NCBI RefSeq assembly: GCF_024521635.1
Contig: NW_026250449.1
Span: forward strand, 62,001-121,505
Length of the DNA stretch: 59,505 nucleotides
Direction: 5' to 3'
Origin: Tricharina praecox
Lineage: Eukaryota
Made by a program: the position numbers and the translations under genes. This document shows, piece by piece, positions 1-54,603 of the stretch. The notes under the pieces are model-generated. The model had not been told where the DNA came from. It did no database searches and saw only the letters and a list, made by a program, of their open reading frames with translations. The number at the start of each line of letters is the position of its first letter. Positions within the stretch are counted from its first letter, which is position 1.

Positions 1-46
1 CTACCATTCATCCACAAATTGTACTGTGCTTACGTGTATTTCTTAG

Positions 47-11911: not shown

Positions 11912-14900
11912 TTAGAGAGGGGAGGGCTGGGCGGGTAAGGCGACATGTAAGTACCTAGCCGCGTAGGCTTCGAGAAGATGGATCACCACCTCGTGTCGGG
12001 ACTCCCACGCGAGATTCACCGGCATCATCCCATATGCATCAGTGGTGAATAATTCCGCCCCACGGTCGACCAGCAATCGTACCACGACCGCGTGTCCCTC
12101 CTCCGAGGCGAGGTGCAGCGGTGTCCTTCCACGTGCGTCGACGGGGGCGACGTCGGCTCCCATGTCGATCAGCTTCTGTGCCACAAGCCCGTGCCCTCCC
12201 CCCGAGGCGAAGTGCAGCGCCGTCCGGCCGTATCTGTCGGTCGTGGAGAGGTCCACCCCCGAGTCGACCAGCATCAGTGCCAAAGCCTCGTAATTCCACT
12301 GCAAGGCGAGTTGCAGCGGCGTCGTAAGGGAGTCGTCGACGGGCAAGACGTTAGCTCCCCGGTCGACCAGCAGCTGGACCACCGCCTCGTGCTGCGCGGC
12401 CCAGGCGAGGTGCAGTGGCGTCCTCCCGGCTTCGTCGGGGGTGGAGAAGTCGGCTCCCTGGTCGAGCAGTAGAACTGCCACGGCCCCGTGCCCCCGTTGC
12501 GCGGCGAGATGAAGCGGCATCATCCCGTCGGCGTTGACGGGGGAGACGTCCGCTCCCCAGTCAATCAGCATCCGTACCAAGGCCTCCTGCCCTTCCTGCG
12601 AGGCGAGATGCATTGGTGTCATCCCGTCCGCGTCAGAAATGGAGGCGTCGGCTCCTCGGTCGACCAGTAGCTGTGCCACGGCCTTGCGCCCCCACTGCGA
12701 CGCGAAGTGAAGCGGCGTCATCCCGTTTACATTCTTGGTGGAGAGGTCAGCTCCCCGCTCGAGCATTAGTCGTGCAACAGCCTCGTGCCCTCCCTGCGAG
12801 GCGAGGTGAAGCGGCGTCATCTTGTATCCGTTCTCTGTGTAGACGCCGGCTCCCCGGTCGAGCAGCCGCCGTACCACAGCCTCGTGCCCTCCTCGCGCGG
12901 CTAGTTGAAGCGGCGTTATCCCGCGTGCGTTAACGGGGGAGACGTCGGCGCCCCGGTCGATCAACAACAGCGCCACAGCCTCGTGTCCCCCCTCCAGGGT
13001 GAGCTGTAGCAAAGTCATCAGGTCTCTGATGCGAACCAAGACGTTGGCTCCTACGTCCAGTAGTAACTGGACAATATCCAACTCTCCAAACGTGCATGCG
13101 CGGACCAACAAACTGTCGATACAGGCGGAGTCGACAGAACTGGAATCGAATACGGTTGCAAACTTTCGCGCCAAACCAAACACGCAGACCGATGAAAGGA
13201 TGTCGCGGCCTTCCTGTTGCAGAGCGTACGACCGATACCAAAACTTGTCTTCAGTGAACGCCACGGTATCGACATGGCCGAAATGATAGTCGAGCCATCG
13301 ATGGTAGTGACTCCCCGATAGGAATGTATCCCAGAGGCCTGTCAAGATGTCACAGTTTCCGTCGTCGCAACGAGAGAAGTGCCACGGCCAAAATACCGCC
13401 GCGTACAACAACAGGTGCCGCTCGCTGTAACTTGTTCGTTTAGTATCCATTTCGATGTCATATTCATCCCAAGAACCGGGAGTGCACAGCAAGGAAAGGC
13501 AAACTCTGGCGATTTCGGAATGCGAGTCGGCCTGCAGGAGCTGGGTCTCGAAATATTCGTCGACAGAAAGATGTGCGAAGCGGAACACGTCCAGACCTTC
13601 GTCCAGAATCAGGAGATTTTGACACGCCTTCAACACGTCATTCACCTGTATCTTGTCATGGGAGAATTCTCCCGAGCTGTCAAGTTCCACTGTGACCGCA
13701 TCGAGTAAGGTTTCGGATGCCAACGGTTCGTACGAACACTGGATCCACCGGAACGCGTTGAGCGCAAGTCGGGGTGCGCTTCCTTTTTGGCTCAGTATCC
13801 GCTTGTATATTTCACCGTATGCAGCTGTCAGGGTCTCCGGAAGAACCTTGAGGCTGTTTATTACGTCTTTTCGCGTGGTCATATCGCAGAGAAATGTAAC
13901 CTGAAGAGCGGCTAGTTGGAACCTAGCGTCGCACCCTCAGTTAATACGCTCATCCCAATTCAAGTGGTCACGGTTTGCTTACATTCCCTTGGATCGCTCG
14001 CAAAGGACGTCGCATATCTCGGCGTTGAGCGCGCGGTCGACAACACCATCGAGCAGCAGTCCGTCATCGATTGTGCCCCGAACCTTCGTTTCCACGAACC
14101 GGTTGATGTCGCCGACATTGTCATCAGGTTGCAAGTCGATCCTTGGAAACATCTCAAGCTGCCGGAGGATGTCGATGTCCATTCGGGTGGTGGCGAAAAT
14201 CTTGACTCGGTTCTTGGATGTTTCAACAACATATTTGAGCGACTTTAGCAACTGTATTCGGGTTTCGTTTTCCACTTCATCCAACGCATCGATGCAAATC
14301 GTCGTCTGCGGATATATATCTGTGAGTTGCACGAGGAGCTCCTGGCTTTCTGTCAAGGTCAGATGCGAGGACTTTTGCCCTCTTTTTTCCCGTGCCTCGT
14401 AGATGCAGACGAGCGGCATTAAGAGTTTGTCATCGTCGGACTCGGTCTGGGCCAGCTGCTGGATAAGCGTATTCAAGATGCTCTCGGGCTGCCGGCGATT
14501 TTCCTCAGCTCGGTTACAGTAAAAGTACGCCAATTTCTCTGCATTCGGACTTGAAAGGAACGAGTCAATAACCCTCGATGCGATGAATGTTTTGCCGGCT
14601 CCAGCTGGAAGGAATGGGAAAACATTAAAATCTATTTCGGCGAAAGAGGTCTATGCAGACTTACGGATTCCCCTCAACAGCAACAATTTCGAAGCGCTCG
14701 ATGATCTCCAATTGTGGTACTCCGTCTTCTTAAAGAGCCACTCGCCAGTTCCTTTTAGACGTACTTCACTAATTCGCTTGTGGTGGTTCGTGTACGGGAT
14801 TTTTGATATCCATTCCAGGATATCGGACCTCCTAGACCCTAGATTAAGTGTGAGTGTTCCAACACCGGATATTTTTTAAAAGGGGGTGCAAGTGAGCTTT

Positions 14901-16322
14901 CGTACCTTCTAATCTTTGTTGTATCCCATCGATCTGAGGACTAAGACGTGACGTCAAAATATTGATATCGTCCAGTAGCGTTCGAAGGCTTTCGAAGCCT
15001 GCCCGTGTACCTAGGTGGAGTCAACACTGCACGAAGTTCCGCTATACGGCCGCAAGGTACATTGAGCTTCAGCGACAGCAGCATCCCGTTCGACCGTTTC
15101 CTCCAAGCTAGTGACATCCTCGAAGTACTCGACAATCTCTCCCGTTGTGAATACCGCCTCTACGCGGGTATCTGTGGAAGGATTAGCAGGGAACGCTTTG
15201 TCCGACGAGGAATACTCAACTTTCGATCTCTGGATAGCTTTTGCAAGGAACTTTAAGATCGCCACGTAAAGAGCAAGCATTGATAGCTCCAGGTTTTTCG
15301 ATGCCCGGGTCGCTTCGGTAAAATAGAGAAGCTCGTAGATCGCGCACCGATGGATGAGGTAGGCAGTCTTCTCGAGTCCAACCAAGATGGCGTCCACTGT
15401 TTCCTGTTTATCCAGCAAGAGCTGTGGAGCAGCATCGTCAGCCGGTTGGGTAATTTTTTTCCGAATCGGTGCGGAAGCTTAGTTATACCTTCAGCAAAAA
15501 CCGAAATCCCGCCCATGGCAGCGCAGAATGTCCAGGATCATACTGAACGATAATGTCGCCGATCTCCTTGAACCTGTTCACCCAGCGCAGGATTTTCATG
15601 CCAACATCTCGCATCACGATTTCGTCCCCCTTGAATCGAATCTTCCAATGCTTTCCCTTATTTCCGTCCACAATTCCTTCCGTTATGTTCCTCAAGGAGG
15701 ATGCGAAATCACGGGTGTCCGTCTCGATAGCAAGCCCCGCAAGGGTTTCGCGCTCCGAAGCGGACAGCGCGTTGCCTCTATAGGCCCGGCTCCACAGGTG
15801 CGGACCTCTAGCCTTAGTATTATCCGCCGTTGCTGCAGTCTTCGTCGTCACCGTACCATCCGCGGTCGCTGTAGTATCTGTCGTCGTCACCGTATCGTCC
15901 GTGATCGATGTAGTATCCGTCGTCGTCACCGTATAATACACTGTCGCTATACCATCCATCGCCGTCACCGTATTATCCGCTATCGCACTCGCAGATGTTC
16001 CCACCACATTACTCGTTGGATTCGATTCGGTGGCTGCATCCTGGGTTTCCGCGGCGTGTGGGGATCCTACCGTCGATTCTAGTGATTTAGTAGAATGTTG
16101 TATTACGGGTGAAGAGCCACTTGGGACTGATGAGGCGATCGCTTCGCCGGAACTACCCGCGGCACTAAGCACCGAGGTGGGGGGTAGATTTGCCTTTCGA
16201 TCACGTATACGCGATCCGACGGTAGTCGTTGAAGGCGAGCCAGTGTAAATTTGGGTCCGTGATTTTGCTCGGCCAAAGTAAGCAAGCAAACGATCTCGTT
16301 TCTTGGGCTTCTCGTCGGACAT
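11912..16322 (-). CDS. NLR-2: NACHT_N-type helical domain, NACHT, winged helix, about 12 ankyrin repeats (about 1352 aa); exons 16322-15489, 15421-15220, 15171-15061, 15010-14906, 14838-14665, 14604-13983, 13922-11912
   Basis: Exons sum to 4059 nt and read open from MSDEKPKKRDR. KILRWVNRFKEIGDIIVQYDPGHSALPWAGFRFLL is the NACHT_N-like motif; LLLRGIPGAGKT is Walker A; ICIDALDE is Walker B; TPLHLAS repeats follow. Intron 2 donor is non-canonical (see findings). Confidence 0.9.
15815..15985 (-). repeat. 39-bp coding tandem repeat (13-aa Thr-rich unit, about 4 copies) in the NLR-2 N-terminal region
   Basis: CGTCACCGTA recurs at 15846, 15885, 15924 and 15963; protein unit TVTTTDTTxxxDx. Confidence 0.85.
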
Positions 16323-16519
16323 CTTGATATGATCGGGTGCTCTGTGCGTGAGGAAGTACCTATTCTGCCTCGCTGGCAAACGTAGGTCGGCAGGATTGTC
16401 TCTGTGCCGAACGGTCACTATTAGTCGGTCGGGTCGTTGAAATAAGTACAGTTCTGTTAACAAATCGCGTGGGTGGTCCTGACGCGACTTCATAAAACGT
16501 GGAAAGCGGGGTCGAGTGC

Positions 16520-16880
16520 GGCTGATTCTCTTGGCTACGAAAATAACATCTAGCAGGCTGCGGGCGCAGCAGCACGTCTCACGTTGACTAATCCAGGATT
16601 CCATAGCCCTTCTGAGTATCACGACTCACGAGCCACTTTTGGTGGTACTGAGAGGCCCATAAACGGGATGAGACAAAAATGGTGATGGATGGAAAATCGA
16701 GGTCTATGAGGAAGATGGACAGCAGAAAGCAAGACAAAAGAGCAACAACGAACACAGGTGGCAGTTCAACGTTTACAGACCGCATCGGGTGTGGTCTGGG
16801 TCTCACCTCCAGAACAAATACCTAGGTCCCACCAAGGTCTTTGCTCCCAAATTCAAGGTCTTAACACGGTCTGCTCTCTT
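16520..16880. repeat. Diverged inverted repeat, copy 1, upstream of NLR-2
   Basis: Blocks GAGGTCTATGA, AGAAAGCAAGA, CAGTTCAAxGTTTA, GCATCGGG, GGGTCTCACCTCCA and CAAGGTCT occur in the same order in the reverse complement of about 22730-23100. Confidence 0.7.
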
Positions 16881-23100: not shown

Positions 23101-23671
23101 TCCCACAAACCTCACAGATTCGGGTTTCTCCGCCACGAAGGTTCGGCGATCAAGAAACGCGTCGCTGCTCGCGGTGCTCGCGACGAATAAGCGCAACACT
23201 CTGCACACATGGCGGTAGGATATGGTGAGGGGACTACTACTAACAGTTCTCGCTAACTGGTTGCTGTCACCTCAGCCGCAGGATTGCTGGGGGGCAGTAG
23301 TTCCTGGCCAATGAAGGACTCGACCGGCAGGCACTTTTCACGCTCATGCATGCACCTATTGTATGTCGATGCCGTTGAGCTGAGGTAACCATCTCATGCG
23401 GGGACAAAGCGGGGTACGTGAATCATATGATATATCTATACCGTACGTTCGCCTCACACGCAGTGTACAGTCGTGCGATATTTTCGACGGATCCTGACAG
23501 CTATCGATCGCGGAAACCGGCCGCCGAGTGGTGCATGCCGATAACTCTTCCCCGAGCGCCTTGCACCTCGATTGACGTTCTCATCCATAGTAGCGGCAGC
23601 AGGGCCCACACCTAAGGAAAGGATCGAACACAAAAACGAACTGTCACCCGGAAGCTGCCACGAGCGACAAC

Positions 23672-26600
23672 ATGAATACCGACGCGCACCGAGTCTACCA
23701 CGACACGACCCATTTCGAGTTTGCGGGAGGCGAGTTCCACGGCGGACAGACGTTTATCTCTGGCTCGCAAGTCTCCCTCGTCGCGGCGATCTTTCAGTCG
23801 CATATCTAGTGTGGCTAACCGGAAATCTCGGCAGGTCCAAAAGTGAGTCTCGACTCACCGTGTTTGTTCAAACTCCCACTCAATGTATTATGTAACCAGG
23901 AGCCAGGTCGTCCGAGATCTTGGAATGGATATCTACGATCCCCTACACGAGCCACCACAGGCGGATCAGTGAGCGGCGGCTGCAAGGAACAGGCGACTGG
24001 ATCTTTCGGAAGGCGGAGTACTGCACGTGGAAGTCTTCGGGCGTTTCCATGTTGTTGCTGTTGCGAGGGATCCGTATGTCGCACACTGCATGCATAGCTC
24101 CGAGTCTGACCGGTTCGACCAGCGGGCGCCGGCAAAACGTTTCTTGCGTCACGGGTCATCGACTCTTTCCTTGCGAATCCGATTCCCAACTCGAAATTGG
24201 CGTTCTTTTATTGCGACCAAGGAGAAGATAATCGACGCGATCCCGAGATGATCATGCGCACACTGGTTCAGCAGCTCGCCTTGGCTCGGTCGGAGAATAT
24301 CGAGCTCTTAAAGCCGGCTATCGCCATCTACGAAGACCGAGAAAAGAAAGGGCAGAGATCCTCACAGCTGAGTCTAACCGAGAGCCAGCAGCTGCTTATC
24401 GACCTCATCAACATGTACTCGCAGCAAACGATAATCATTTGCATCGATGCGTTGGATGAAGTCGATAGTGCGATACGGATACAACTTCTGAGCTCACTGA
24501 AGCATGTGATGGAAGGATCGAAGAATCCCGTCAAAATCTTTGCCACAACTCGAATGGACTTCGACATTCTGCGGCAGTTTGAGATGTTTCCCCGGATCGA
24601 GTTGCACCCTGACGACAATATCGACGACATCAGCCGATTCGTCAAAACGGAGGTTCGGAACAATATCGGTAAGAGACTGCTGCTCGATGGCGTTGTCGAC
24701 GGCGGGCTCAAAGACGATATTTGCAACGTCCTCTGCCACCGATCCAAGGGAATGTAAGTATATTCGATCTCCCGAAACGCGTGTCTGACAGTTCGATAAA
24801 GGTTCCAACTCGCGGCGCTGCAAATCGATTTCCTTAGCGAGATGACCACCCAGGATGACGTGAGACGCGGTCTAAGGGCGCTACCAGACACACTAGCCCA
24901 GGCCTACGACGCGATCTACAAGCGAATTCTCCGGCAGAAAGGAAACGCGCCGCAACTAGCACTCAACGCCTTCCGGTGGATCCAATGTTCCAACGAGCCG
25001 CTGCGATCGGAAACGTTGCTAGACGCGATCGCGATCCAGATCGGTGGTCCGGAAGAACCGTTTCACAAGGACACGCCGATGAAGGCGAACGAACTGCTCA
25101 AGGCGTGCCAGAACCTCCTCATTCTGGACGAGCGTCTGAACGTGTTTCGCTTCGCACACCTCTCCGTCGACGAGTACCTGGAGACAAAACTGTGCAGGGG
25201 CGAGTGCCACACCGAGATCGCGAAGGTCTGCCTTTCGCTGCTGTGCACCTCGTGGGACGACTACGACACGGCGCTTCAAACGCAGGAAGGGGATTACAGC
25301 GATCGCCACCTCCTGCTGTACGCGGCGGTATTCTGGCCGTGGCACCTCTCCCGTGCGGATGACCGCTGCGACATTCTGCATGCCTCCTGGGCAAACTTCG
25401 TTTCCGACGGCAATCACGAGCGATGGTTCTTTTACCACTACCGGTACGTGCGAACGCGGTTCCCGAAAGACATGTATTGGCGAAGATCCGAGGCGCTGCA
25501 GGACGACCGAAACATTCTATGTACAGTCTGCATTTTTGACCTGGGGCGGTATTTTAGAGTCACCCCCGAGTTCCGAAAGAAGGCACGCATAGGCCGGCTA
25601 CGAGCCAGGTTCGGTTCGCGACAGACGTTCACCGCGGTTTTCGGGTCCAGGTCGGCGGAGGGCGCCCGTGTGGACAGGCTGCTTCTGTGCGCGGCTCGGT
25701 TCGGAGATCCCGATATCGCCGGTAAACTCCTCGACGTTGGTGCGAATATTGCGGCCGTCGATAAAGGCAACTGGACATCGCTACATCTGGCATTCAAGGA
25801 AGGGCATGAGGCCGTTGCGCGACTATTGATTGACCGCGGGGCCGACATATCGACTGTCGGTGGTTACTCCGGGCGGACGCCGCTGCAGCTGGCGGCGCTA
25901 GGCGGGTACGAGGCTGTCGCACGAGTGCTGCTCGACCGTGGAGCCGACGTCTCGCTCGCCGACAGTGCTGGGAATACACCGCTGCACATCGCGTTGGAGA
26001 CCGGACATGACGCAGTGGCCGTACTGCTCCTCGGGCGGGGGGCTGATGTCTCAACCGTGGGCGGTCATTCCGGGAAGACGCCGCTGCAGCTGGCCGCGAA
26101 AGGAGGCTATTTCACGGTCGTCCGGCTGCTCGTCGAGCGGGGCGCAGACGTCTCGGTTGCGGACGCTGATGGGAGTACGCCGCTGCACATCGCCTTGCTG
26201 AGAAGACACGAAACGGTTGCCCTACTGCTCATCGATCGGGGAGCCAATATCACAACCGCGGGCGGCTACTGCGGGCGGACGCCGCTGCAGCTGGCCTCAC
26301 AGGGTGGATTCGAAAGAGTAGTGCAGCTGCTCAACGATCGGGGCGCCGATGTCTCGACCACCGCTGGTTATTCTGAACGCACGCCTCTGCAGCTGGCCAC
26401 ACAGGGAGGGTATGCGACAGTGGCACGGCTGCTCATCGATCGTGGAGCAAACGTATCGGCTGCCGACGGTGATGGAAACACCCCGCTACACATCGCCTTG
26501 CAGGGGGGCCATGATGGTTTGGCCCTACTACTCCTCGATCATGGCGCTGACATCTCGGCCATCGGCGGCTATTCCAGGCGAACGCCGCTACAGCTTGCCT

Positions 26601-28363
26601 CTCAGGGGGGTTACATGACGGTCGTCCAGCTACTCGTTGAACGGGGAGCCGATGTTTCAACCGGCGGGGGTTATTGCGGACAGACGCCGCTGCAGCTAGC
26701 CGCGCAAGGAGGGCACGAGGTGGTTGCGTGGCTGCTCATCAATGAAGGGGCCGATGTCTCAGCTGCCGACCGCTATGGATGGACGGCGCTGCACCAGGCA
26801 TCGCAGGGAGGATATGAGGCCGTAGCGCATTTGCTCATCGACTGCGGAGCCGATGTCTCACCTCTCAATGGTGACGGGAACACACCACTGCACATCGTGC
26901 TGCAAAGAGAACACGAGATGGTAGACCTGCCACTAGCCATCGACCAGCAAGCTGATAGGTCGACCGCGGGCGGTTATTCCAGGCAGACGCCGGTGCGGCC
27001 GCCCTCACACGCAGGATACGAGGTGGTAGCACGGCTACTCGTCGACCGGGGATCCGACGTCTTGGCTGCCGACAGTTACGGTAAGACGCCTCTGCAACAA
27101 GCATCATGGAGAGGGTACGAGGCGGTGGTGCAGATGGTCGTCGATCGAGGAGCGGACGTCTCGGCTGCCGACAGTGACGGGAATACGCCACTCCACCTTG
27201 CCTTCCAGGGGGGGCACGAGTCGGTGGCGTTGCTGCTCATCGAACGGGGAGCTGATGTCTCGATCGCCTGCGGTTCTTCCAGGAAGACGCCGCTGCAGCT
27301 AGCCTCGCAGCGGGGGCACGATGTGGCGGCTCAGATGCTCATCGACCGGGGAGCGGACATCATGACGGCACAGGGCTATTCCGGGCTGACGCCACTGCAG
27401 CTAGCGGCAAGGGGAGGACACGTGTCGGTCGCCCGGCTGCTCATCGATCACGGAGCGGACGTCTTGGCTACAGACGCCGGTGGGAAAACGCCGCTGCACA
27501 TCGCATTACAGGGAGGGCACGAAGCGGTAGCCCGGCTACTCGTTGATTGGGGTGCTGATGTCGCGATCGCCGACAGTCATGGGAATACCCCGCTCCACAT
27601 GGCTTTGCAGGAAAGGCAGTGCGGGGTGGCCGTGTTGCTGATCGAGCGGGGAGCTGACGTATCGATTGCCGGCGGCGATTCAGGGCTCACGCCGCTGCAG
27701 CTCGCCTCGACGCGAGGCTACGAGGCGCTGGTCGGGCTACTCATGGACCGGGGAGCTGATGTCTTGGTTGCCGACAGCGAAGGGAAAACGCCGCTCCACA
27801 TGGCCTTGGACGGCGGGTACAAGGCGGTCGCCTGGCTGCTGATCCATCGGGGAGCCGCCGTCTCGGCCGCCGACGGGACTGGGACCACACCGCTGCACTT
27901 GGCTCTGCATGGAGGACACAAGGCGGTGGCTAGGTTGCTGATCGATCGGGGAGCCGCTGTGTCGGCCGCAGACTGCAACGGAACGACGCCGCTGCACGTC
28001 GCCTCGCTCAGAGGACATGAGGTAGTGGCAGGACTCCTCCTCGACCGTGGAGCCGCCGCCTCGGCCGTCGACCATGTAGGCGGAACTGCTCTCCATCTGG
28101 CCTCGGGGGCAGGCTACGAATCGGTTGCACGGCTACTGATCGACCGTGGTGCCGATATCTCGGCTGCAAACAGATATGGGAAGACACCTCTCCACCTCGC
28201 CGTAGAGGGCGCGCACACTGGTACTATCATGCTACTACTCGAGCGGGGAGCCAACCCTTCCGCCGGCGACCGCGAGGGGAAAACGCCGCTAGATTCTATT
28301 GTGCCAAGACGGTACAAGTTGATCGCCCGCCTGCTGTTCCATCTAAACGGCTCGGTGATTTAG
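23672..28363 (+). CDS. NLR-3: N-terminal amyloid-like motif, NACHT, winged helix, about 26 ankyrin repeats (about 1489 aa); exons 23672-23766, 23835-23842, 23900-24073, 24123-24753, 24802-28363
   Basis: Exons sum to 4470 nt and read open: MNTDAHRVYHDTTHFEFAGGEFHGGQTFISGSSKRARSSEILEWISTIPY..LLLRGIPGAGKT..ICIDALDE..LALNAFRWI..ankyrins. Intron 1 GCAAGT..GCTAAC..CAG; intron 2 GTGAGT..CAG; intron 3 GTATGT..CTGAC..CAG; intron 4 GTAAGT..CTGAC..AAG. The 174-nt pre-P-loop exon has the same length as in NLR-2. Confidence 0.88.
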
Positions 28364-29154
28364 AATGCCACCTCATTTTCTCCCTCTCTTTTTTCCATCA
28401 CCTTTCGGTTAACATCTATGCGCGTTCGCGCCTCTAATCGTGAACATGTGGAGAATCACTAGACATACCATGGGCTGACACGTTTTGCATGCGGTTCGGA
28501 TATTCTGGGTTTTCATTTCATCCCTCTTCTGCTATTGCCACCAACTCTTTCATTGTTCACTACCGGCCCCCGTGCAAGTACTTGCCATCCGGGCCGCCCA
28601 TACTCCAGTGCCAGATATTTCCGATGAGCGCATGCCGTGCCATCTCGAGCCCACCACAGCTTATAGGTTGTAGTGTACAGCACGCTGCACAATAGCGTGT
28701 CTCACTAAATCCCTCAACTCTACCGCCAGAGATGTCAGATGCCGCCCTGTGCTTTTGCGGTGAAATCGGTGATAGGGTAGAACTCTGAATACACATACCT
28801 CACGACACCTCACAGCAGTCTAGCCCTGCGTCGCCCATTATTGGCCATTAAAGCGGGGTAGCTTTCGGTAGCAGTATACCCATTGTGGCAATAGTGGGAA
28901 CCACCGCGGCCATCGTAGCGGGGTAGCTCCCATATTACCCCTCATTGCAAACGGTGTGTCGTCCATTGGTTGGCTGCGTTTCAAGATTCAGGCCAGAACG
29001 CGCCCTGCCTAGAAGCACAATGCATGCACGTCCCAGAATACGACCAGCTGGATGCGACTCCGCAACGCAGACCCTCCAAGGCTCGCATATGGTAACATAC
29101 CAACAGGTGTACGCCTGAATCGTCAGGTCCCTCCTCAGCTGCACGGAGAAGCCT

Positions 29155-29338
29155 TATAACCCCAGCACACGTCCCCTCTGCGGACTCCCGCTCGTCACCC
29201 AACTGCACCCGCTTCACTACCAAACCTCACCCGCTCCATCACCACCGCACAGCACCCCAGACCCACAGGTATCCCCCAACCCGCACTCCACACCCAGCCT
29301 CCCACCCTTCGCCACTCCTAACACCACCCAGCTCACAG
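29155..29338 (+). promoter_or_regulatory. TATA box and 5'-UTR intron of the 77-aa microprotein gene
   Basis: TATAA at 29155; ATG-free C-rich leader; donor GTATCC at 29269; branch CTAAC at 29318; acceptor CAG ending at 29331 or 29338. Confidence 0.6.
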
Positions 29339-29342
29339 CACC

Positions 29343-29576
29343 ATGTCCACCGAGCAAGCCACCAACCTCACCACGCAGGAAAGCGTACCTGTCAGCACCC
29401 CTACCGAGGGGAACAAGAACACGATCTCAGTGGGCCGCGACATGACGAACCGCGACTTCGTCACCGGCGCCAAAAACAGCCACAACTCCACGAATAACAG
29501 CCGCACCTACAACGGCGGATCGAAGCATAACGAGTTCAATGGCGGGACTTTCAATGGTGGGCAGAACTGGTCGTGA
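29343..29576 (+). CDS. 77-aa N/G/T-rich microprotein with C-terminal amyloid-signalling-like motif matching the NLR-3 N-terminus
   Basis: Good start context CACCATGT; GC3-biased codons; C-terminus RTYNGGSKHNEFNGGTFNGGQNWS aligns with NLR-3 RVYHDTTHFEFAGGEFHGGQTF. Confidence 0.8.
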   Translation: MSTEQATNLTTQESVPVSTPTEGNKNTISVGRDMTNRDFVTGAKNSHNSTNNSRTYNGGSKHNEFNGGTFNGGQNWS

Positions 29577-30629
29577 TTGTTGGCGTAAGTAGAGTAAACT
29601 CTGTCAGCGCTCGGGAAAGGCGGCGGCTGATTCGGGCGGCACTGCAGGGGGGGGCGTGCGTGTCCGGGGTGGTGAAACGCCAGCCCGAGCTTCACGTGAT
29701 GAAGGCGATCGTGTCGAGTATCGGGATTTTTATGTAGACGATGAATATACTGCTCGTTGACCAGCTACCTTTGTCCGCAGATGACTGTGATAAAGTTGTG
29801 TTATCTGAAGAGTTCGTCGGTGATGATACCGGTACCGTCATACATACAAGCAATAGTCCACCCCCGGTAGTACTATGAAGCACATAGCCCCGGTAGTGTC
29901 ACCTAGACCACAGTGTGTCAGGTCTTCTGTTTGTGTCCGGAAGAGTTGCGCAGTCGCGTGCTCGCTCCACCATAAGTAATAACGGTCTCGGATTCTCTGC
30001 TCCTCGCCAGTGGTTGACCGCACGTGCTCGGAGGCCGCCATGGGTGCCCTGGACTCTTAGCCGAGCTAGCCGCGAACTTGACGGTGGAGGTGGTCGGAGA
30101 CTAGGAGGCGGTATAGCCGCAGCCGTTGCAGGCTCGCTGCTCGCTCCGTACCGCGTCAGTCTACACCTTAACCAGTGCTACCCCCAGTGCGAAACCACAC
30201 CGCCACTCAGGCAGAGAGCGAATACCTGTACTCTACAGACAAACGACGAGAAGTATTTTGTAGATAACTATATCGCTCACCTGTGAGCAAGGCTGCTCTT
30301 TCCCAGCGTGCGCTAAGCGTGTACTGGGCGCAGCACTGCGAGATCCACAAACAGTCACTCGTTCGTCGTGTCGATGCCACAGCTTTTGATGGCGATTAAG
30401 GCGTCATAACCTACTTGGCGGGTAGGCAAATACCTTATAGGTGTCGGAGAGAATCGGTAATGGTCAGGGGTGGTGCGATGAATGGGTGGTGTAGAGTAGA
30501 GTTGGACGGAACTTCCTAGATCTAGGATGGATTGGATGGATTGGATACATACGAGGTTGCTTGAAACCATTTGTTTATGTGTGCAATAGAAATAAAATGC
30601 ACCACCCCCAACCCCCGAGCCCCACACCC

Positions 30630-35356: not shown

Positions 35357-36730
35357 GTTGCTGGTTGGGGGTTGGTTGGTTGGTTTGGGTGGAAAGAGTG
35401 TGGAAAGTTCGAAAGAGTGAAAGGATGCGTGAATGAGTATGAATGAACGAGTAGATGAGTGAATGAGTTGATGCTGCTGAGATTGGAGGCCGGATTCCGT
35501 CGGTATTTATGTGAGCAGTGGTCCTCTAGGGAAACTAGGAGTCGACGCCCCGAAGGTTCATCACGCTCGTGAAGCTGGGGTTTCCGTCTTCCACAACCCA
35601 GAAACCTACATTACCGCTCTCAAAGTCCCTCCACCGTTGGTTAACCTACCTACGGTTCACTGCTATGTAAAGGACCACACGCCAAAGCTTGAGTTTGGAG
35701 GATACCTCTCACCAACCTAGGTAGTGCGGTTGCGAAAGACAGTTTTGAGAAGGAGGGTTATCCGGTCAGAGGATATTCTTCCGCGCTTTCTTTGCAAGGC
35801 GACCGCTCTGTAGCACTTGTAGATGGAGTCTAAGGTTCGTTAGCCAATGTTGAGGGCATTGCCTAATCCGTGCCCAGATTTTCGTGCATCGTCAACCAGT
35901 GTAATAATCCGCCTTCGCCCATCCCGAGTAGGTTCTCTATGGCTGTCCGCTGTCGGAAGATTCCCCACAGTGTCCGTTTGGTTCAATGGTCTCCGATAAC
36001 GCACGAAACTCTCACCTGACGGATGGAGATGGCGCGGCGGGGCGGTAACGATGTGGATAGAGTTCGACAATTCTCCGCCACTCCAGCTGAGCGTACACGG
36101 GAAGTCCCATCTCCAAAGCTTAAATACCCTTCCACCATAGAGTGCGCTGCTGTACAGGCATGTTGGACATTTGGATTCCAGTACGAGCAGACACTGACCC
36201 ATATTTAGCCATGCGAGCCTTGTTCTCACGGCATCTCTACCCCTCGTCTTCCCTGGAGGCTGTACTAGGTAAAGGTGCAATTTTGAGCTTGTATGTGTGG
36301 GAGGTATGTCATTCCGAGGAACCGTTCGAAAAACTTGCTCTATCAGCCGAAAAAAACGCTGCCGTTGGACTGCTGCTGCGAGATTTGGACGTAGGTTTCC
36401 AGGTACCGACATTGGGACGTCTCACCAAGTGCGGGGAGCGGAAGAGAGCGAGGGAGGGAGGGAGGGAGGGCACTAGGCTGAATGCGTATCTGTGATGGGA
36501 GGTGACATGTGACTGATCTCTGTCGTCACGTGGGATGTGGCCTCGTGACGACAGCCTCGGCTGTAAGGTTGTAGCCTCGGCTCTTAAAGCTGGATGACTT
36601 GGCGTCTTGGTAAGACGACCACGTCGAGAGCTGGGACGAGAGCTTTCTTCTCTCTCTTCTGTTCATCACTTTGCTTCTTCTTCTTCTTTCTGTTGATTGA
36701 GAAGGGCTCTACCAGCAGCACTTACGTAAT

Positions 36731-37651
36731 ATGCCTATTCCCGTTCTGCGCGGTATTCGATACGGCCTGGACACGCATCAGCAAGCTCGTAATGCGATTG
36801 TTGTTCGGCTCTTAGAGATGGCAGAGTTGATTCAAGAACTTGAGTTGGCGTACGCTTGCACTTCAATGGAGTCCATGTGTCGGGTCGTCTGGATAGCCAC
36901 ACTGTGTAAAAGTAAAGTTCATATGGAGATGATACGGATAATGTGTAATAACATCACCGACATCGGCTTCCCATTCGTTAAAACCGATTTCGATTTCTTC
37001 AGCACCTATCTTTCTAGGATTGCTACCTACTACCCCGCACGTGGTACATTTCACACGCTGGGGCCGAAATTCAACCTCTTCACCGGTAAAAGGGTCGTCA
37101 TTACGGCTATTGATTCCCTCCAGCAAGAGACGACAGTTGATCCCTCCTCGTCCCAGGTTAGTACATTTGATGTCTTTAAGAGTGCGCTCCTATCCGCCGA
37201 CGACCTTGCGAAGTTCCATGGCCGACACAGCAAACGCCTGGAAAACGAATATACCCGACGTCGTGAGAACCTGGAAATCCGCGAACATTGCGAAATGCGG
37301 CTATTATGCTTCCACGAAGAGAACCCCGACATGAAGCCTCTTCAAAACTACCTTGGCATCTCCGAGCACTCGTGCTTCAACTGCGACTTTGTCCTTCGGC
37401 TTCTCCAAGATGATGGATACCTCTGTCCGTTTGTCGTCTCGCAACCGGGCCGGAAGAAGAGACAGAAACCTGCGAGCCCGGCGGTCTACAACGTCGTACC
37501 GGGCTACCATACTAGAAAGGTATCCGCCGACTGGAAGTTCCCCGCGATCGACTACGGCAACGCGAAAGGCGCGGTGGCGAATAATGCTCGACTGCGACGT
37601 ATAGAAGCGCAAGCCCGCTTACCTACTGCACTAGTAGGGGTAGGTGTTTGA
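36731..37651 (+). CDS. OTT_1508-like nucleic-acid/nucleotide deaminase domain protein (306 aa, possibly 5'-truncated)
   Basis: HCEMRLL..YLGISEHSCFNC..GYH..KVSADWKFP follows the HxE..YxGxSKxxCxxC..H.K...W..P pattern of this family. Confidence 0.7.
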   Translation: MPIPVLRGIRYGLDTHQQARNAIVVRLLEMAELIQELELAYACTSMESMCRVVWIATLCKSKVHMEMIRIMCNNITDIGFPFVKTDFDFFSTYLSRIATYYPARGTFHTLGPKFNLFTGKRVVITAIDSLQQETTVDPSSSQVSTFDVFKSALLSADDLAKFHGRHSKRLENEYTRRRENLEIREHCEMRLLCFHEENPDMKPLQNYLGISEHSCFNCDFVLRLLQDDGYLCPFVVSQPGRKKRQKPASPAVYNVVPGYHTRKVSADWKFPAIDYGNAKGAVANNARLRRIEAQARLPTALVGVGV

Positions 37652-48058: not shown

Positions 48059-48911
48059 AGTTCAGAATCTTGGCCTTAAGTAGCTACTGGGATGATAGCC
48101 GTCAGCCATCAAAATACCTTTTGGTCAAGTGGTATAGTACTTTCCCAGTGTACTTGATTACAGTACTGTCTTGGCTCGCGACGGAATGACGAAGCGAGGG
48201 TGGGCACAAGGATCGGGAGAGTTGGGGGGCAGTGCAGAGGCAGTGCACCGGCAGTGCAAGGATGAATCGCAGAGGATTGGGGGCTGTGTGCAGGGAGCAG
48301 GGATAGCGCAGTAATGAGCCGTAGGAGATTGGGGCTGTGTGCAGGAAGCAGGGGTAGTGCGGCTGCGCAGGGTATGAGTCACGGAAGTGGGGTACTGGCA
48401 AGGTGGATTTCTCAGGGTCTGGCACACGCCCACGGTCATTGTCAGGTTGCGGGAAGAAGTGGAGGATTTTCTATATAAACGGGCCGTTGCCCCTCTGTAT
48501 TTAGTTCTTCACGCAACAACTTGTTAATTCAACCACTGTTACCTCTGTCCTTGCTTCAGCTGCCGTCTGCGCCGTAGTCTTTGTCCCTGCCTCTGTTCTC
48601 AATTGCCGTCTGCACTGAGCCCTGCGTCACCTTGTCCCCTGAACCCGTCCTGCCTCTGCTGGACCCAGAACCCGATCACCAGCCCGACTTCGCTACCTGG
48701 AGCCTTGCCCGACCCTGTCGTTACACTTTGTTGCGTCCCCTATCTCTCCACCTAGCGAACTACCATCGCCACCAACACTCAGGTACCCGACGTCACCCAG
48801 CGGGACAAAGTACCACTGGCACCTCCCTTCTACCGAGAAATTCCTGCTGCCATCTATAAACAAGTCGAAATCATTGTCAATCATGATGCAGCCGCCGATG
48901 ATGCAACTCTG

Positions 48912-49962
48912 ATGGGGTTGTACAAAGGATTCAAAATCCTCGCCCGCGCAATCAACCTATCCCCAATAGCCGTACCGACCTGGCGATTCGACGATCTCGA
49001 AGAAAAACTTGCTGACGCTCGCCGCATCGCCAACCGCCTCGCCACCGTCGAAACCCAACCTCAAAGCTGCGCTGAGCGTGTCCCAGAACCAGCCATGTTT
49101 AACGGAACACGCGAGAAACTGGAAGGATTCGTTGCGCAACTTCGACTCGAGCTGTACAGCGACCCAGCCCGTTTCCCAACTCCAGCACTCCGAATGGCCT
49201 ATGCCTTCAACCGCTTGGAAGGCCGCGCCCAAGCCCAGAACCTGCCGTACATCGAAAATCACAACATCACCCTCACCTACGCTGATGCAATCATCACACT
49301 CCTGAACAACGCATTTGGTGACCCTGACCCAGCGGCCACCGCTCGAGCCAAGCTACACCACCTGAAACAAGGCAATAAGGAGTCCACCTCCTACTTTGCG
49401 CAATTCCAGATGCTTGTCTCCAAGCTCAATTGGGACAAGCATGCGAAGCTTGACGCGCTGCGAGAAGGAGTATCCATCGAACTCCACCGGCAACTTGTCA
49501 GCCGTACTCAGGGCCTCAACTACGATGAGTTTGTGGCCACTCTGTCAACGCCTTGACTCCGAGCTGCGTGCCCTCCAACTTCGTGAGGGACGCTGCACCA
49601 CCAACCCCCCTCGGCAGAGTAGCGCCCCACACCCCACGGCGCCGGCCAGGCGCACCACCCACAACACCATGCCCGCGACGACCACTGCCACAGGAATGGC
49701 CCCCAGAGCCATGGACTTGAGAGCCAACAGCTGCAGGATCCCAGACCAAGACCGTGCTGCCCGGCTCCGCGAAGGCCGCTGTCTGTACTGTGGGGGAAGT
49801 GGCCACATGGCCAGGCACTGTCCCAACAAGAACCGAAATCTGTTCCGAGCAGCCGTTGCCCGGCTGGAGTCAGCCCAGCCCACCAACACCACCCCGGCTG
49901 ACACCTATCACACCTGCAACCAGGATTGTGGCGGGACCATCCAGCAGTCGGGAAAAGCCTAG
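48912..49962 (+). pseudogene. gag: gag (capsid plus CCHC zinc knuckle), frameshifted near 49545
   Basis: PEPAMFNGTREKLEGFVAQL..AFGDPD..LKQG; CLYCGGSGHMARHCP. Confidence 0.88.
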
Positions 49963-50053
49963 ACCAACAACCGCTTGATGGCACTGTTGTTGGACGTACC
50001 CAAGATAAGTCTTTGTCTCCTATGTCCCCTATTTTTCGTTTTCTAGTCTCTCG

Positions 50054-53000
50054 GTGTCAGGAATGATTGTGGAAGAATCATCAATGGAAGGAAAACATCA
50101 TGTTGTATTGTGTAACCTTTCGTTTGGTGACAAAACGATTGCCACGCATGCGCTGATCGATTGTGGGGCAACCGGAATTGCATTTGTAGACACAGACTTC
50201 GCCGGCCATCACCACCTACCCCTCGTACCCCTGAAATCCCCGCGAAGTCTCGAAGTCATCGATGGCCGTCCCATCGAGTCAGGCGACATCACACATGTTG
50301 CCACCACCACCCTGTCCATACAGGAACACCACGAAGAAATCTCTATGTTTGTCACCAAACTAGGCCACTATCCCGTTGTACTCGGAATTCCCTGGATGGA
50401 CCTCCACGATGTGGCCATCCGGTTCAGCTCCCGAACCCTCACCTTTGGCTCCCAATACTGTACAGCCAACTGCAATGCGGTGCCCTGAGTTGCACATGGA
50501 ATCACCACCAACCCTCCTGACGTATCTACCTATGCTCTCTTGCAAAAGCAGCTCAGCAAGAGCCAGCGGTAAGCGCGGGGGCTGGCGACATCGTGGCCCG
50601 CTACATTACGTCTCCCCCAAGGAAGAATCACCAAGAATGCACTAACCTTTTGAGGCAAAGCACAGTCAGAATCTCAGCCTTACAGATGGAGTCATTCCAA
50701 GAACTGGTCAACAAGGAAAGCCTCACGATTTTCAACACCACGCTTGCCGAGGTCAACGGCGCACTGGAAGGAAACAAGGACCCCACGGCACATATCCCTC
50801 ACGAATACCACGAGTTCCTACCGCTGTTCTCTGAAGCCCTTGCCCAGAACTTGCCTCCGCACCGACACTACGGCCATAAGATTCCACTCAAGGAGGGATT
50901 TACACCCCCATACGGACAACTGTACTCACTTTCGAAAACGGAGCTTGTCGCACTGAAGGAATGCCTTGACGACAACCTCAGCAAAGGTTTCGTCCGTGCC
51001 TCTTCCTCTCCAGCAGCATTGCCAATCCTGTCTGTCAAGAAATCGGACGGCTCCCTACGCCTGTGTGTGGATTACAAGGGCCTGAACGAAGGAACAATCA
51101 AGAACAGGTACCCACTCCCCTTCTCCAAGAAACTCGGATGCGGCTATCCGGGGCAAAATACTTCACCACCCTGGATATCCGCGGTGCCTACAACCTTGTG
51201 GGGATGGCGGAAGTAGAAGAGTGGAAAACTGCCTTCCGGACACGCTATGGGCTCTTCGAATCCCTCGTCATGCCCTTCGGTCTCACCAACGCCCCTGCCG
51301 ACTTCCGAGCTCTGATTCACGATGTGCTACGCCCGTTCCTCGACCACTTCTGTACCGCATTCATCGATGACGTCTTCATTTACAGCGGATCCTTAGATGA
51401 ACACCGGAAACATGTCAGGAAAGTACTTCAGACCTTATCAGCAGCCGGTCTACATCTCAAGCCCGAAAAATGTCATTTCCACCAGACGGAAGTCAAGTAT
51501 TTGGGACTGATCATTACAACAAACGGGATCAAGATGGACTCAGCGAAAGTTTCCTGCATACTGGAATGGGAGGAGCCGAGTACCGTCACCGATGTGCAAT
51601 TCTTTCTGGGATTTGCAAACTTCTATCGGCGATTCATGCATGACTATTCCAAGGTGGTATCCCCATTGACAGCATTGACCAAGAAGGAGGATGGAAAGTA
51701 TGTTCCCTTCGTGTGGGGACCGGAACAGCAGAAAGGATTCGACGAATTAAAAACAGCATTCACCTCGGCCCCGATCCTCCGGCACTTTGAATACGATCGG
51801 CAGATAGTAGTGGAAACTGACGCCCCCGACTACGTCTCTGCCGGAGTCCTATCTCAGTACGGCGACGAGGGAATCTTGCACCCAGTGGCATTCTATTCCA
51901 AGAAACACTCCCCGGCAGAATGCAACTACGAGATCTATGACAAAGAACTCCTTGCAATCATCCGCGCCTTTGAGGAGTGGAGACCACATCTGGAGGGTGC
52001 TCCTCACCCCATCCAAGTCCTAAGCGGCCACAAGAATCTGGAGTATTTCATGACAACGAAACTACTCAACCGACAACAAGCGCGATGGTCAGAGTTCCTT
52101 TCCCGTTTCCATTTCAAGATTGTCTACCGACCAGGCAAAGCAGGAGGAAAACCGGAAGCACTGACCAGGAGGTCAGGAGACCTCCTTAAAGAAGGGGATG
52201 AAAGACTGCTTGCCAACCAGCAGGCAGTCTTGAAACCGGACAACCTACCGGAAGAGCTTCGGTTGGCAGCAAACAACACATCCGGACAAGACCGTCCCCT
52301 CTTCACGTCACTGATAACAGAAGGCTACGACATAGACCCCGTCCCTAATCGAATCCTCAAGCTACTCCGAAATGGTACACGCCACTCGAAGGAGATCTCC
52401 TTGGCCGAATGCCGCGGAGTCAACGGGCAACTGATCTACAGAGACGGCCTCTATGTTCCAGAGTACGACCGACTCCGACTACGACTGATCCAGGACCACC
52501 ATGACCCACCGACCATGGGGCACCCAGGGCGCGCGAAAACCCTGGAACTACTTGCTCGGAGGTACTACTGGCCACAGATGCGAAAGAAAGTTGACCAGTT
52601 TGTCCGAAACTGCCACACCTGCCGGCGAACCAAGGCCACATGGCACGCACCCTATGGTTTCCTGCGCCCCCTCCCAGTACCCGAGAAGCCATGGCAACAC
52701 ATCTCAGTCGACTTTGTCACTGGCTTACCAGCCTCAAAGGGGTTTGACGCCATCTGTGTTTTTGTTGACCGACTGACCAAGCAACGCCATCTCCTACCAT
52801 GTACCACGACCATCACCTCGGAAGGACTGGCCGAGCTGTTCTGCGACCGGATCTTCAGGTACCACGGGTTGCCAGAAACCATTATCTCGGATAGGGGTCA
52901 CCAGTTTGCCTCGGGATTCTGGAAACACCTATGCTCATGCCTCAAGATCGAGCCACGCCTGTCGACTGCCTTCCACCCCCAGACCGACGGCCAAACCGAA

Positions 53001-53797
53001 CGGATGAACGCCGTCAGGGAACAGCACCTCCGCGCGTACGTCAGCTACCTCCAGGATGACTGGGGCGACTACCTGTTCTTGGCCGTATTCGCTGGCAAAA
53101 ACCAGGTCTCCGACACGGCTACCCTGTCCCCATTCTTCGCTAACCCAGGATACCACCCACGGTGTGACTTTGAGCTGGATATCCGTGTCGACACCAAGGA
53201 GGAACATCAAGCTCAGAGTGCAGCGAAACGGTTGCATCAAATTCACGATGTCGCCCGCAGCCAAATGCGGGATACCCAGGCACGGCAACAGGACGACTCC
53301 GACCGACACCGAACCCCTGCGCCAGCCTTCCAACCAGGCGATATGGTATGGGTGGATGGTTGGAACTGGCGCACAGAGAGACCCAGTCGCAAGCTGGAAA
53401 ACAAACACCATGGTGCCTACCGTGTAATTCGGACAATCGAAACCCACGCCTACGAATTAGACATCCCAAACACCATTCAGAAGCACCGAACATTTCCTGT
53501 ATTCCTCTTTCATGCCTCTGCTGATGATCCCTTCACTGGACAAATTCCACCGCCACCACTTCCAGTAATTGTGGACGACCAAGAAGAATGGGCGGTTGAA
53601 GAGGTCCTCGACAGCCGGAATCTCAGGGGCAAACTCCAGTACCTGGTGAAATGGAGAGGCTACGCAGCACCAACATGGGAACCAGAGGAGAACCTTACCG
53701 AGGTAGAAGCTGTGGACGACTTCCATCGACGATACCCCATGCAGCCTGGACCAGTCGAACTTGCTCTCGTGGGAACTCGAGCCATAGGAGGGACTAC
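50054..53797 (+). pseudogene. pol: pol polyprotein (protease, RT, RNase H, integrase, chromodomain) with a stop at 50486 and frameshifts including one near 51120
   Basis: ALIDCGATG; LRLCVDY; MPFGLTNAPA; FIDDVFIYS; VETDAPDY; HHCC zinc finger; SVDFVTGLP, ISDRG, GQTER; EWAVEEVLDSR..YLVKWRGY..TWEP. Confidence 0.93.
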
Positions 53798-53913
53798 TGT
53801 TACGGCGCGTGAGGCAATGACGAAGGGAGGGTCAGCACAAGGATCGGGAGAGTTGGGGGGCAGTGCAGAGGCAGTGCACCCGCAGTGCAAGGATGAGCCG
53901 CAGAGGATTGGGG

Positions 53914-54603
53914 TGTGAGACTGGAACGAGCTTGCGTCGTCGGAGTCTATGGTAATATCGAATATAGAATAAAAGTCAGGGATTTCGATAATCCACAACG
54001 GAATAATCTTAAGGGTGTTTCTTCGATGGTTTGTTCGGTGCGATGATTGTAGTTTGGTTCGGTTGCCCGCTCGGTTCGGCTTATAGTCGTTCCGATCCTC
54101 AGCACGTGATATCTATAGAGTACGGCCTAACGTAGCTCCGTTGCTTCCTTTGCATCGGAGTTCCTCGGCCTAGCCTCAAGTCCTCGTCAGCTCTCCTCGG
54201 ATAGTCTTCTCGACTAGGCAGGTGGTAAACAGCACGCGCCCAAGATAGATCGGAGTTTCTGAGCAATTATCTCCCTCATGCGCAGGCAGAGTTCTTCGCT
54301 CGAAGTTGTCTGCCCCCATCAGTCGATGTTCAATTCTCTCATCATAACAGTTTTTCCCTGGATCGGAGTTCCTACTGCGGGGCCCTATGAACGCAGATCT
54401 CAAAGTCCTCTGGACTGTTATCCCGATCTCCCGCATCTCCGATCACTGTCTAGACTCTGGAATCTGTTTGCTCCCTCCTTCCTATCTTGTCCTCGATCGC
54501 TTCTAACTGTCCTTTCGGCTCGCAATTCTATTTTGATCACCTGAACTATCTAATCACATCTCTTGCGACCGTCGTGACCTCCGATACCTATCGCGGTGTC
54601 ACA
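53914..54603 (-). mobile_element. Solo LTR, family A/B (690 bp), inserted in the 3' LTR of the chromovirus
   Basis: TGTGAGAC..GTGTCACA ends; flanks TGGGG and TGAGG; the host LTR resumes after it. Confidence 0.92.

Follow-up and report, generated by a model that had tools for sequence, protein, structure and literature searches.

A NACHT-ankyrin receptor and an adjacent 77-residue protein of Tricharina praecox share a terminal motif: a candidate amyloid-signalling pair

The locus

The window analysed here – a stretch of 59,505 bases from Tricharina praecox, a member of the Pezizomycetes (Pyronemataceae) – carries two adjacent genes on the same strand. The first encodes a receptor of the NOD-like receptor (NLR) type with a NACHT domain and a long array of ankyrin repeats (NLR-3); the second encodes a protein of 77 residues, hereafter the microprotein, whose ATG lies 979 bp past the NLR-3 stop (28363). 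The N-terminus of the receptor and the C-terminus of the microprotein carry versions of one short motif. A sequence-only reading of the window had proposed that the two genes form an amyloid-signalling pair, in which the motif of the receptor templates that of its neighbour.

Gene structures were read from contigs assembled from sequencing runs. Two of these runs, X1 and X2, come from two studies and are listed as 'RNA?'; their contigs skip introns and thus behave as transcript assemblies. A further study contributed the third, X3, which is a soil metatranscriptome. The contigs of a fourth run, X4, contain nothing of the stretch, which is not evidence of absence.

The receptor gene

The features of NLR-3 are as follows.

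23672-28363, plus strand: NACHT(NPHP3_N)-ankyrin receptor, the third of three in the window (NLR-3; Pfam)
23494-29190, plus strand: NLR-3 transcript contig, with leader, five exons and at least ~814 nt past the stop (X1 and X2 contigs)
23535-23615, plus strand: upstream open reading frame (ORF) in the leader, 26 codons plus stop, out of frame with the main ORF
23672-23766, plus strand: coding part of exon 1, 95 nt, MNTDAHRVYHDTTHFEFAGGEFHGGQTFISG (contigs, deposited model)
23767-23834, plus strand: intron 1, GC-AG, donor GCAAGT
23835-23842, plus strand: 8-nt mini-exon GTCCAAAA, which sets the frame (contigs, deposited protein)
23843-23899, plus strand: intron 2, GT-AG (GTGAGT..CAG)
23900-24073 and 24123-24753, plus strand: exons 3 and 4, pre-NACHT region and NACHT/NPHP3_N NTPase domain (Pfam, contigs)
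24074-24122, plus strand: intron between exons 3 and 4
24754-24801, plus strand: intron before the last coding exon
24802-28363, plus strand: last coding exon, with a winged-helix-like middle, the long ankyrin-repeat array and the stop (Pfam, contigs)

X1 and X2 each hold one NLR-3 contig of about 5.5 kb, and the two agree in exon structure. Record 1 of X1 (5,475 nt) spans 23494-23767, 23900-24073, 24123-24753 and 24802-29190; record 6 of X2 has the same exons and ends at 29177, the last piece being uninterrupted from 24802 onward in both. The leader thus starts at or before 23494. Between the two sides of the joint from 23767 to 23900 the contigs show the mini-exon as TCCAAAA, and across it the deposited protein (P0002) reads ...FISGSSKRARSSEILEW. 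In both runs exon 1 is joined in frame, by way of the GC-AG intron and the mini-exon, to the NACHT and ankyrin exons; the joined coding sequence of 4,470 nt is a single ORF of 1,489 aa. Positions 23672-23764 translate as MNTDAHRVYHDTTHFEFAGGEFHGGQTFISG, the spliced contigs give a protein that starts MNTDAHRVYHDTTHFEFAGGEFHGGQTF, and P0002 starts MNTDAHRVYHDTTHFEFAGGEFHGGQTFISGSSKRARSSEILEW, its model being the same as the first 517 residues of the transcript-derived receptor. The sequence-only reading was therefore right to place a 95-nt first exon here and to splice it to the NACHT exons, although it made no mention of the mini-exon. Mini-exons of 3 bp are reported from NACHT-ankyrin genes of Tuber (PMC9815663).

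The domains of the receptor begin at residue 64. NPHP3_N was found at 7e-24 in a domain scan of 18 long ORFs of the window and at 1e-33 in residues 64-236 of P0002, and the ankyrin array matches Ank_2 at 3.4e-184 in 17 stretches. Pfam detected nothing in residues 1-63.

Several further features of the gene deserve record. P0002 is partial (669 aa) and diverges from the transcript-derived protein after residue 517, at about 25447-25560 of the window, apparently at a predicted intron of which the transcript contigs give no sign. Low-depth RNA contigs link distant ankyrin repeats (26156 to 27922, 27171 to 28175 and 27364 to 28139), either as repeat-collapse artefacts of assembly or as repeat-number variants of the array. 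Finally, the NLR-3 contigs of both runs continue for about 814-827 nt past the stop (28364-29190), over the TATA region of the microprotein gene, and end 18-31 nt before the microprotein contigs start. This overrun could reflect a long 3′ untranslated region (UTR), read-through, or transcriptional coupling or interference, among which contigs cannot distinguish.

The microprotein gene and its product

The features of the microprotein gene are as follows.

29078-29170, plus strand: promoter, with two elements that are conserved in a metagenome relative (L001): the box AAGGCTCGCATAT and a TATA region
29208-29753, plus strand: transcript in contigs (X1-X3)
29269-29331, plus strand: 5′UTR intron, 63 nt, GT..AG (joint 29265/29329, cut +3)
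29343-29576, plus strand: coding sequence, 77 aa plus stop (ORF, contigs)
29585-29647, plus strand: 3′UTR intron, 63 nt, GT..AG (joint 29584/29648)

Contigs of this gene start at about 29208-29241, some 50 nt downstream of the TATA region, and in one record sequencing-adaptor letters stand immediately before 29208. Seven X1 contigs have the 5′UTR intron spliced out, as has the X3 contig, a 362-nt piece of the microprotein mRNA that spans 29214-29637 at an identity of 99% or more. The spliced leader of 72 nt contains no ATG, that at 29343 being the first. The stop occupies 29574-29576 and the 3′UTR intron begins 8 nt after it; X1 and X2 have this intron removed, whereas X3 still contains it. 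In no contig does a joint use a donor upstream of the stop.

A transcript start of its own, a leader without ATG and the lack of a used donor before the stop together mean that the product is a 77-aa protein and not the tail of a longer one. The alternative that this ORF is the last exon of a longer effector gene – an outcome that the sequence-only reading had allowed for – is thus rejected: the leader offers no earlier start, and the stop precedes the only downstream intron. The gene is transcribed. Summed contig depth over the microprotein was 336,068 against 152.5 over the receptor in X1, and 3,093 against 236 in X2; contig depth is a poor measure of expression and cannot rank genes, and we take these figures as a hint that microprotein expression is high and condition-dependent.

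The protein ends in RTYNGGSKHNEFNGGTFNGGQNWS. Asparagine, glutamine, serine, threonine and glycine make up 60% of its residues, and hydrophobic or aromatic residues 17%. Pfam, read at E up to 10, yielded no family for it; AlphaFold2, given a two-row alignment, returned a mean pLDDT of 48.9 and no secondary structure, so that it is predicted to be disordered. The transcript has no further coding exon. So far as Pfam and structure prediction can show, the earlier statement that the partner has no HeLo, HeLo-like, hydrolase or PNP_UDP domain holds.

Relatives of the whole protein are scarce. A HMMER scan of 1.84 billion representative proteins at E up to 0.001 returned the microprotein alone, although a motif-only match of 15-25 residues could not have reached that threshold and the receptor itself went unreported. 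A word search among proteins of near length returned one candidate, again itself. The best score in the ESM Atlas was 0.86, below the meaningful level and to unnamed plant clusters, and a sequence search of the PDB gave one row at chance level (E 6.3). The microprotein is present in the protein collection solely by way of a run assembly (source 'Logan') and is in neither NCBI nor UniRef, so that the annotation of the deposited genome appears to lack it.

A motif shared by the two termini

The two copies of the motif lie as follows.

23690-23755, plus strand: receptor-side motif, R7 to F28, RVYHDTTHFEFAGGEFHGGQTF
29502-29570, plus strand: partner-side motif, R54 to W76, RTYNGGSKHNEFNGGTFNGGQNW, one residue from the C-terminus

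The core H14-F28 of the receptor (23711-23755) and H62-W76 of the microprotein (29526-29570) are identical at 9 of 15 residues, and both are preceded by R-x-Y, with an offset of one residue. The combined pattern is R-x-Y-x(4-5)-H-x-E-F-x-G-G-x-F-x-G-G-Q-x-[FW]. All of this is present as the sequence-only reading had described it, as are the five conserved codons for which it had reported third-position differences: among the 15 core codons, four are identical, five are synonymous but different, and six differ in the amino acid. Differences between the cores amount to 0.88 at synonymous sites (pS) and 0.32 at non-synonymous sites (pN), with every G, F and Q of the pattern kept. These values indicate that the two copies are old, and the pair is therefore not the result of recent copying of DNA, as had been argued before. 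Recent duplication was considered as a candidate explanation in its own right and rejected on the same grounds, only four of the codons being identical at a pS this high.

Could the resemblance be a coincidence between low-complexity stretches that both happen to be rich in glycine? The peptides are short, G, N, F and H are frequent in both, and each contains the x-F-x-G-G unit twice, so that the identity looks higher than it otherwise would. Against this stands, firstly, the behaviour of shuffled sequences. The BLOSUM62 local alignment of the receptor N-terminus with the microprotein scores 55. In sets of 20,000 shuffles each, this value was never reached when the microprotein, just its last 30 residues, or both sequences were shuffled, and it was reached three times when the receptor N-terminus was shuffled. 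Among the 1,826 stop-to-stop ORFs of at least 20 aa, the microprotein ranks first after the receptor's own exon, and the next score is 35. Secondly, F.GG.F.GGQ and five looser patterns match at these two places only in a six-frame translation of all 59,505 bases (~119,000 residues), which leaves no third carrier of the motif within the window. The terminal positions of the two copies, the adjacency of their genes and the strong purifying selection on the partner motif (described below) tell against coincidence in addition. The likeness is more than chance, and we regard an accidental origin as very improbable.

Prediction of a complex between two copies of receptor residues 1-40 and two of microprotein residues 41-77 gave a score of 0.01 (mark 0.34), which counts neither way.

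The motif is the constrained part of the microprotein

Among metagenome contigs of the JGI, one related locus emerged from 240 pattern matches: L001, of 3,358 nt. Its ORF at 461-787 ends ...RRNYSGNSKHNEFNGGTFNGGQSF, followed by a stop. L001 is collinear with the T. praecox locus. The box AAGGCTCGCATAT stands at 206-231 (29078-29103 of the window) and the TATA region at 331-370 (29132-29170), matching at 82.5% along 40 nt; 106 nt of coding sequence at the C-terminal end align at 72.6%, and in both loci a GTAAGT donor closely follows the stop.

The pattern of change within the coding part is telling. L001 retains SKHNEFNGGTFNGGQ with seven synonymous and no amino-acid changes; over the 15 codons S60-Q74 pS is 0.78 and pN is 0, and the chance that all seven changes would be synonymous, were they random over sites, is 1.3e-5. 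Residues 1-53 are identical at 14 of 53 positions and residues 54-77 at 18 of 24. Because S60-Q74 has accepted no non-synonymous change while residues 1-53 keep so little, the comparison indicates that the motif is the constrained part of the microprotein and is under purifying selection.

Further upstream in its ORF, L001 has two GGNTF units and an N-rich tract. The genomic DNA gives this ORF no in-frame ATG; a predicted intron of 45 nt (429-473, GT..CTAAC..CAG) would join A|TG and so create one. The equivalent intron of T. praecox ends 11 nt before an intact ATG. The box AAGGCTC(G/A)CATAT, together with a ...TGCTTGCGCTGCAG stretch, occurs twice in tandem upstream of the L001 gene (200-320), and the core box once upstream of the T. 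praecox gene (29078-29103); it is a candidate for a shared regulatory element. L001 includes just 460 nt upstream of its gene, less than the 979 bp that separate receptor and microprotein in T. praecox, and its 2.5 kb downstream contain no recognisable domain and no receptor.

Relatives of the receptor

With residues 1-130 of NLR-3 as the query, 16 of 79 candidate proteins came within E of 0.001, the query itself included. The other 15 are homologous receptors from Tricharina, Pyronema, Wilcoxina, Terfezia, Trichophaea and Morchella. In these proteins the Walker A motif is found at residues 115-431 and is preceded by a long N-terminal region, where precomputed annotation places PF17100, PF24809, PF17111 or PF22939. 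Homology to NLR-3 begins at a shared point, the start of exon 3 (...ARSSEILEWIS, against ...SRRSDILEWIS in a paralogue within the window). Because the homologues have long N-terminal domains up to this same point, the motif exon and the mini-exon would seem to have replaced the effector-type N-terminal domain of the relatives. Such replacement is the usual relation between 'all-in-one' fungal NLRs and those that bear a motif (PMC5485727).

The paralogue, NLR-2 (P0003, 11912-16625, minus strand), is 65% identical to NLR-3 in the pre-NACHT region and has kept a long N-terminal domain; its ORF contains a Thr/Asp-rich low-complexity tract further upstream. A search with the receptor N-terminus that admitted longer proteins had a single candidate, 'hypothetical protein BZA05DRAFT_360374, partial [Tricharina praecox]' (P0002, 669 aa, from NCBI/UniRef).

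The expectation that the motif pair would be conserved in relatives is thus borne out on one side. The partner motif is under purifying selection in the one relative available, L001; none of the 15 homologous receptors carries any of the six motif patterns.

These data bear on a reading without signalling, namely that the motif is shared by descent or convergence and that the microprotein is an abundant, disordered, N/G/T/S-rich protein with a function of its own, as a stress or hydration protein, for example, or a self-assembling material, for which its C-terminal GGxF repeats are conserved. Exon 1 of the receptor would then be a captured or convergent copy, with no communication between the two proteins. 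The absence of the motif from the homologous receptors agrees with this, as do the orphan status of the microprotein in both protein searches, its own conserved promoter, the additional GGNTF repeats and N-rich tract of L001 (of a kind found in low-complexity proteins) and the very high contig depth, poor measure though depth is. Yet the match falls at exactly the two termini that known pairs use, and in adjacent genes on one strand; synonymous sites between the copies are saturated (pS 0.88) while 9 of the 15 core residues, every G, F and Q, and R-x-Y have been kept; and shuffles that preserve composition do not reach the alignment score. We judge this account rather unlikely, though the likeliest of the alternatives.

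Comparison with known amyloid-signalling systems

On the receptor side, the general architecture of fungal NLR pairs is found here in full: NACHT and ankyrin repeats, and a short, domain-free N-terminus with a motif at residues 7-28. The partner side likewise has its motif at the end of the protein (residues 54-76 of 77) and is encoded by an adjacent gene on the same strand; what it does not have is an effector domain of the HeLo, HeLo-like, SesB lipase or PNP_UDP kind. The motif itself is made up like known ones, being some 22 residues long and terminally placed, with aromatic or hydrophobic residues alternating with G, N and Q. The missing effector domain apart, the pair conforms to the architecture of amyloid signalling.

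The closest parallel in arrangement is NWD2/HET-S of Podospora anserina (HRAM motif), where a NACHT-type receptor with an N-terminal motif, also in single copy, adjoins a gene whose product carries the motif at its C-terminus. HET-S, however, combines a HeLo pore-forming domain with two 21-aa repeats, whereas the partner here has 77 residues and no domain; NWD2 has WD repeats where NLR-3 has ankyrin repeats; and the motif sequences are unrelated, the present one having no Pfam match at E up to 10. Indeed neither the 31-aa receptor peptide nor the 77-aa protein matched any Pfam family at that threshold (although HMMER's filters remove the greater part of anything weaker than E of about 0.1), in a copy of Pfam that presumably contains the NACHT_sigma, Ses_B and HET-s profiles. 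The cores of the PP and RHIM motifs are absent from the three peptides compared (receptor, microprotein and L001).

NACHT_sigma, Ses_B and HET-S are the field's Pfam profiles for sigma, PP and HET-s (PMC8086366). The sigma cluster het-eN/SesA/SesB of Nectria haematococca and the PP cluster PNT1/HELLP/SBP of Chaetomium globosum resemble the present pair in that N/Q/G-rich motifs occur both at a receptor N-terminus and at the C-termini of its neighbours, and the sigma motif resembles it further in its repeated sub-motifs, comparable to the x-F-x-G-G units; there, unlike here, a single receptor has two effectors to serve, whose domains are HeLo-like and lipase (PMC5485727).

PUASM pairs were found by the same logic of receptor N-terminus and neighbour C-terminus (Wojciechowski et al. 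2022, PMC9815663). They too join a Pezizomycotina receptor to its neighbour by an F/G/Q motif of about 22 residues bounded by aromatics. The PUASM pattern as printed there, FxGxGxQxxGxGxF, is nonetheless absent from all three peptides, as are the patterns G-h-Q-h-G (PMC9815663) and N-x-G-x-Q-x-G; and PUASM is tied to PNP_UDP effectors (PMC9815663), whereas the 18 long ORFs scanned in the window gave no PNP_UDP match.

Taxonomically, the motifs closest to the present one are the Tuber-specific NLR19 and NLR34 (PMC9815663, Table 1). They too are amyloid-like motifs in the short N-termini of Pezizomycete NACHT-ankyrin receptors, of 27 and 28 aa in 53 and 29 receptors, respectively, and no neighbour or effector partner was found for either; several receptor-side motifs stand without a partner in the same survey. 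None of five pentapeptides taken from the present motif turned up in those supplements of PMC9815663 that are searchable, and T. praecox is missing from its tables. The survey screened neighbours of 200-400 aa only, and a partner of 77 aa could therefore not have been found by it. With no Pfam match at E up to 10, and with neither the PUASM nor the PP-type patterns present, the earlier suggestion of a new class is well taken: so far the motif would appear to be a new sequence class, NLR19 and NLR34 being available for comparison by description alone.

A partner with a motif and no effector domain admits another role, that of a brake. The microprotein would then be an abundant, motif-only decoy that caps receptor motifs or nascent fibrils, preventing spurious activation and setting a threshold, and the real effector, if there is one, would be encoded elsewhere. 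Motif-only viral proteins are thought to jam RHIM signalling in an analogous manner. Apart from the missing domain, the apparent large excess of the microprotein over the receptor in contigs (again, depth is a poor measure) and the lack of a third motif carrier in the 59.5-kb window are in keeping with such a role. On the other hand no unlinked motif-bearing effector is known, no search of the whole genome or of longer proteins with the microprotein motif having been made; and in a cap one would expect departures from the receptor motif at the face where the fibril grows. We consider a brake improbable.

Other features of the window

The remaining domain-bearing features of the window are the following.

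3-2891, plus strand: NACHT(NPHP3_N)-ankyrin receptor, the first of three (Pfam)
About 11912-16625, minus strand: NACHT(NPHP3_N)-ankyrin receptor, the second of three (NLR-2; Pfam)
48756-53918, plus strand: Ty3/gypsy-type retroelement with gag, reverse transcriptase (RT), RNase H, integrase and chromodomain (Pfam)

In addition an ORF at 36701-37651 (plus strand) has a borderline match to an OTT_1508-like deaminase, at 27.0 bits against a cut-off of 27.

Discussion

The nature of the relation between receptor and microprotein is the critical issue. The reading that we favour, and to which we give a somewhat better than even prospect, is that the two constitute a two-gene pair of the NLR type that works by amyloid templating, with a new motif and a partner devoid of an effector domain. 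The proposal of the sequence-only reading gains from the splicing of exon 1, from the separate transcript of the microprotein and from the conservation of the partner motif; it loses by the absence of the receptor-side motif from all 15 homologues. Binding, the amyloid fold, the direction of templating and the output are what we infer.

The sequence of events might be as follows. On meeting its cue by way of the ankyrin array, the NACHT-ankyrin receptor would oligomerise, and oligomerisation would gather several copies of the 28-residue N-terminal motif. The gathered motifs could fold into a nucleus of stacked beta-arches, with short strands at the aromatics and turns at the GG pairs, and this nucleus would template the nearly identical C-terminal motif of the adjacent 77-aa protein. 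The microprotein, predicted to be disordered and apparently abundant, would then polymerise. Because it has no killing or enzymatic domain, the polymer itself may be the output – an amplifier, a scaffold or a relay, possibly passing its fold to unlinked motif proteins.

A number of observations weigh against a signalling pair. The partner has no effector domain, so that activation would lead to no execution step of a known kind. Contig depth over the microprotein is so high as to be unusual for a component of a death pathway and suits an abundant protein with its own job, with the reservation already made about depth. The motif matches none of the validated families. Just one receptor that carries it was found: the word search with the receptor N-terminus returned the receptor itself, and the 15 homologues are without the motif. 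Moreover, adjacency of receptor and microprotein is seen in one genome only, L001 being too short upstream to show it. The case rests on one pair and one orthologue of the partner.

A bolder proposition can also be framed: that the 'effector' of the receptor is the amyloid-forming microprotein alone, its receptor-nucleated polymer acting, for instance, as a speck, a gel or a plug that closes a hyphal compartment, and that unannotated microproteins of fewer than 200 aa are the missing partners of NLR19, NLR34 and the large Agaricomycete group. We think this quite unlikely. The practical blind spot to which it points is nonetheless plain, in that the survey of PMC9815663 took only annotated neighbours of 200-400 aa, and the microprotein appears to be absent from the deposited annotation. 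The motif peptides are short enough for direct synthesis and for prion assays in Podospora.

To our knowledge, in all validated amyloid-signalling pairs of fungi and bacteria the protein to which the receptor is linked has a killing or enzymatic domain. A nearly motif-only partner, transcribed and under constraint, would add a further role to such systems, whether as an adaptor, an amplifier or a brake, or with the polymer as effector. The Pezizomycetes, in which NACHT-ankyrin receptors are numerous but have no known partners, would moreover contribute a new class of motif.

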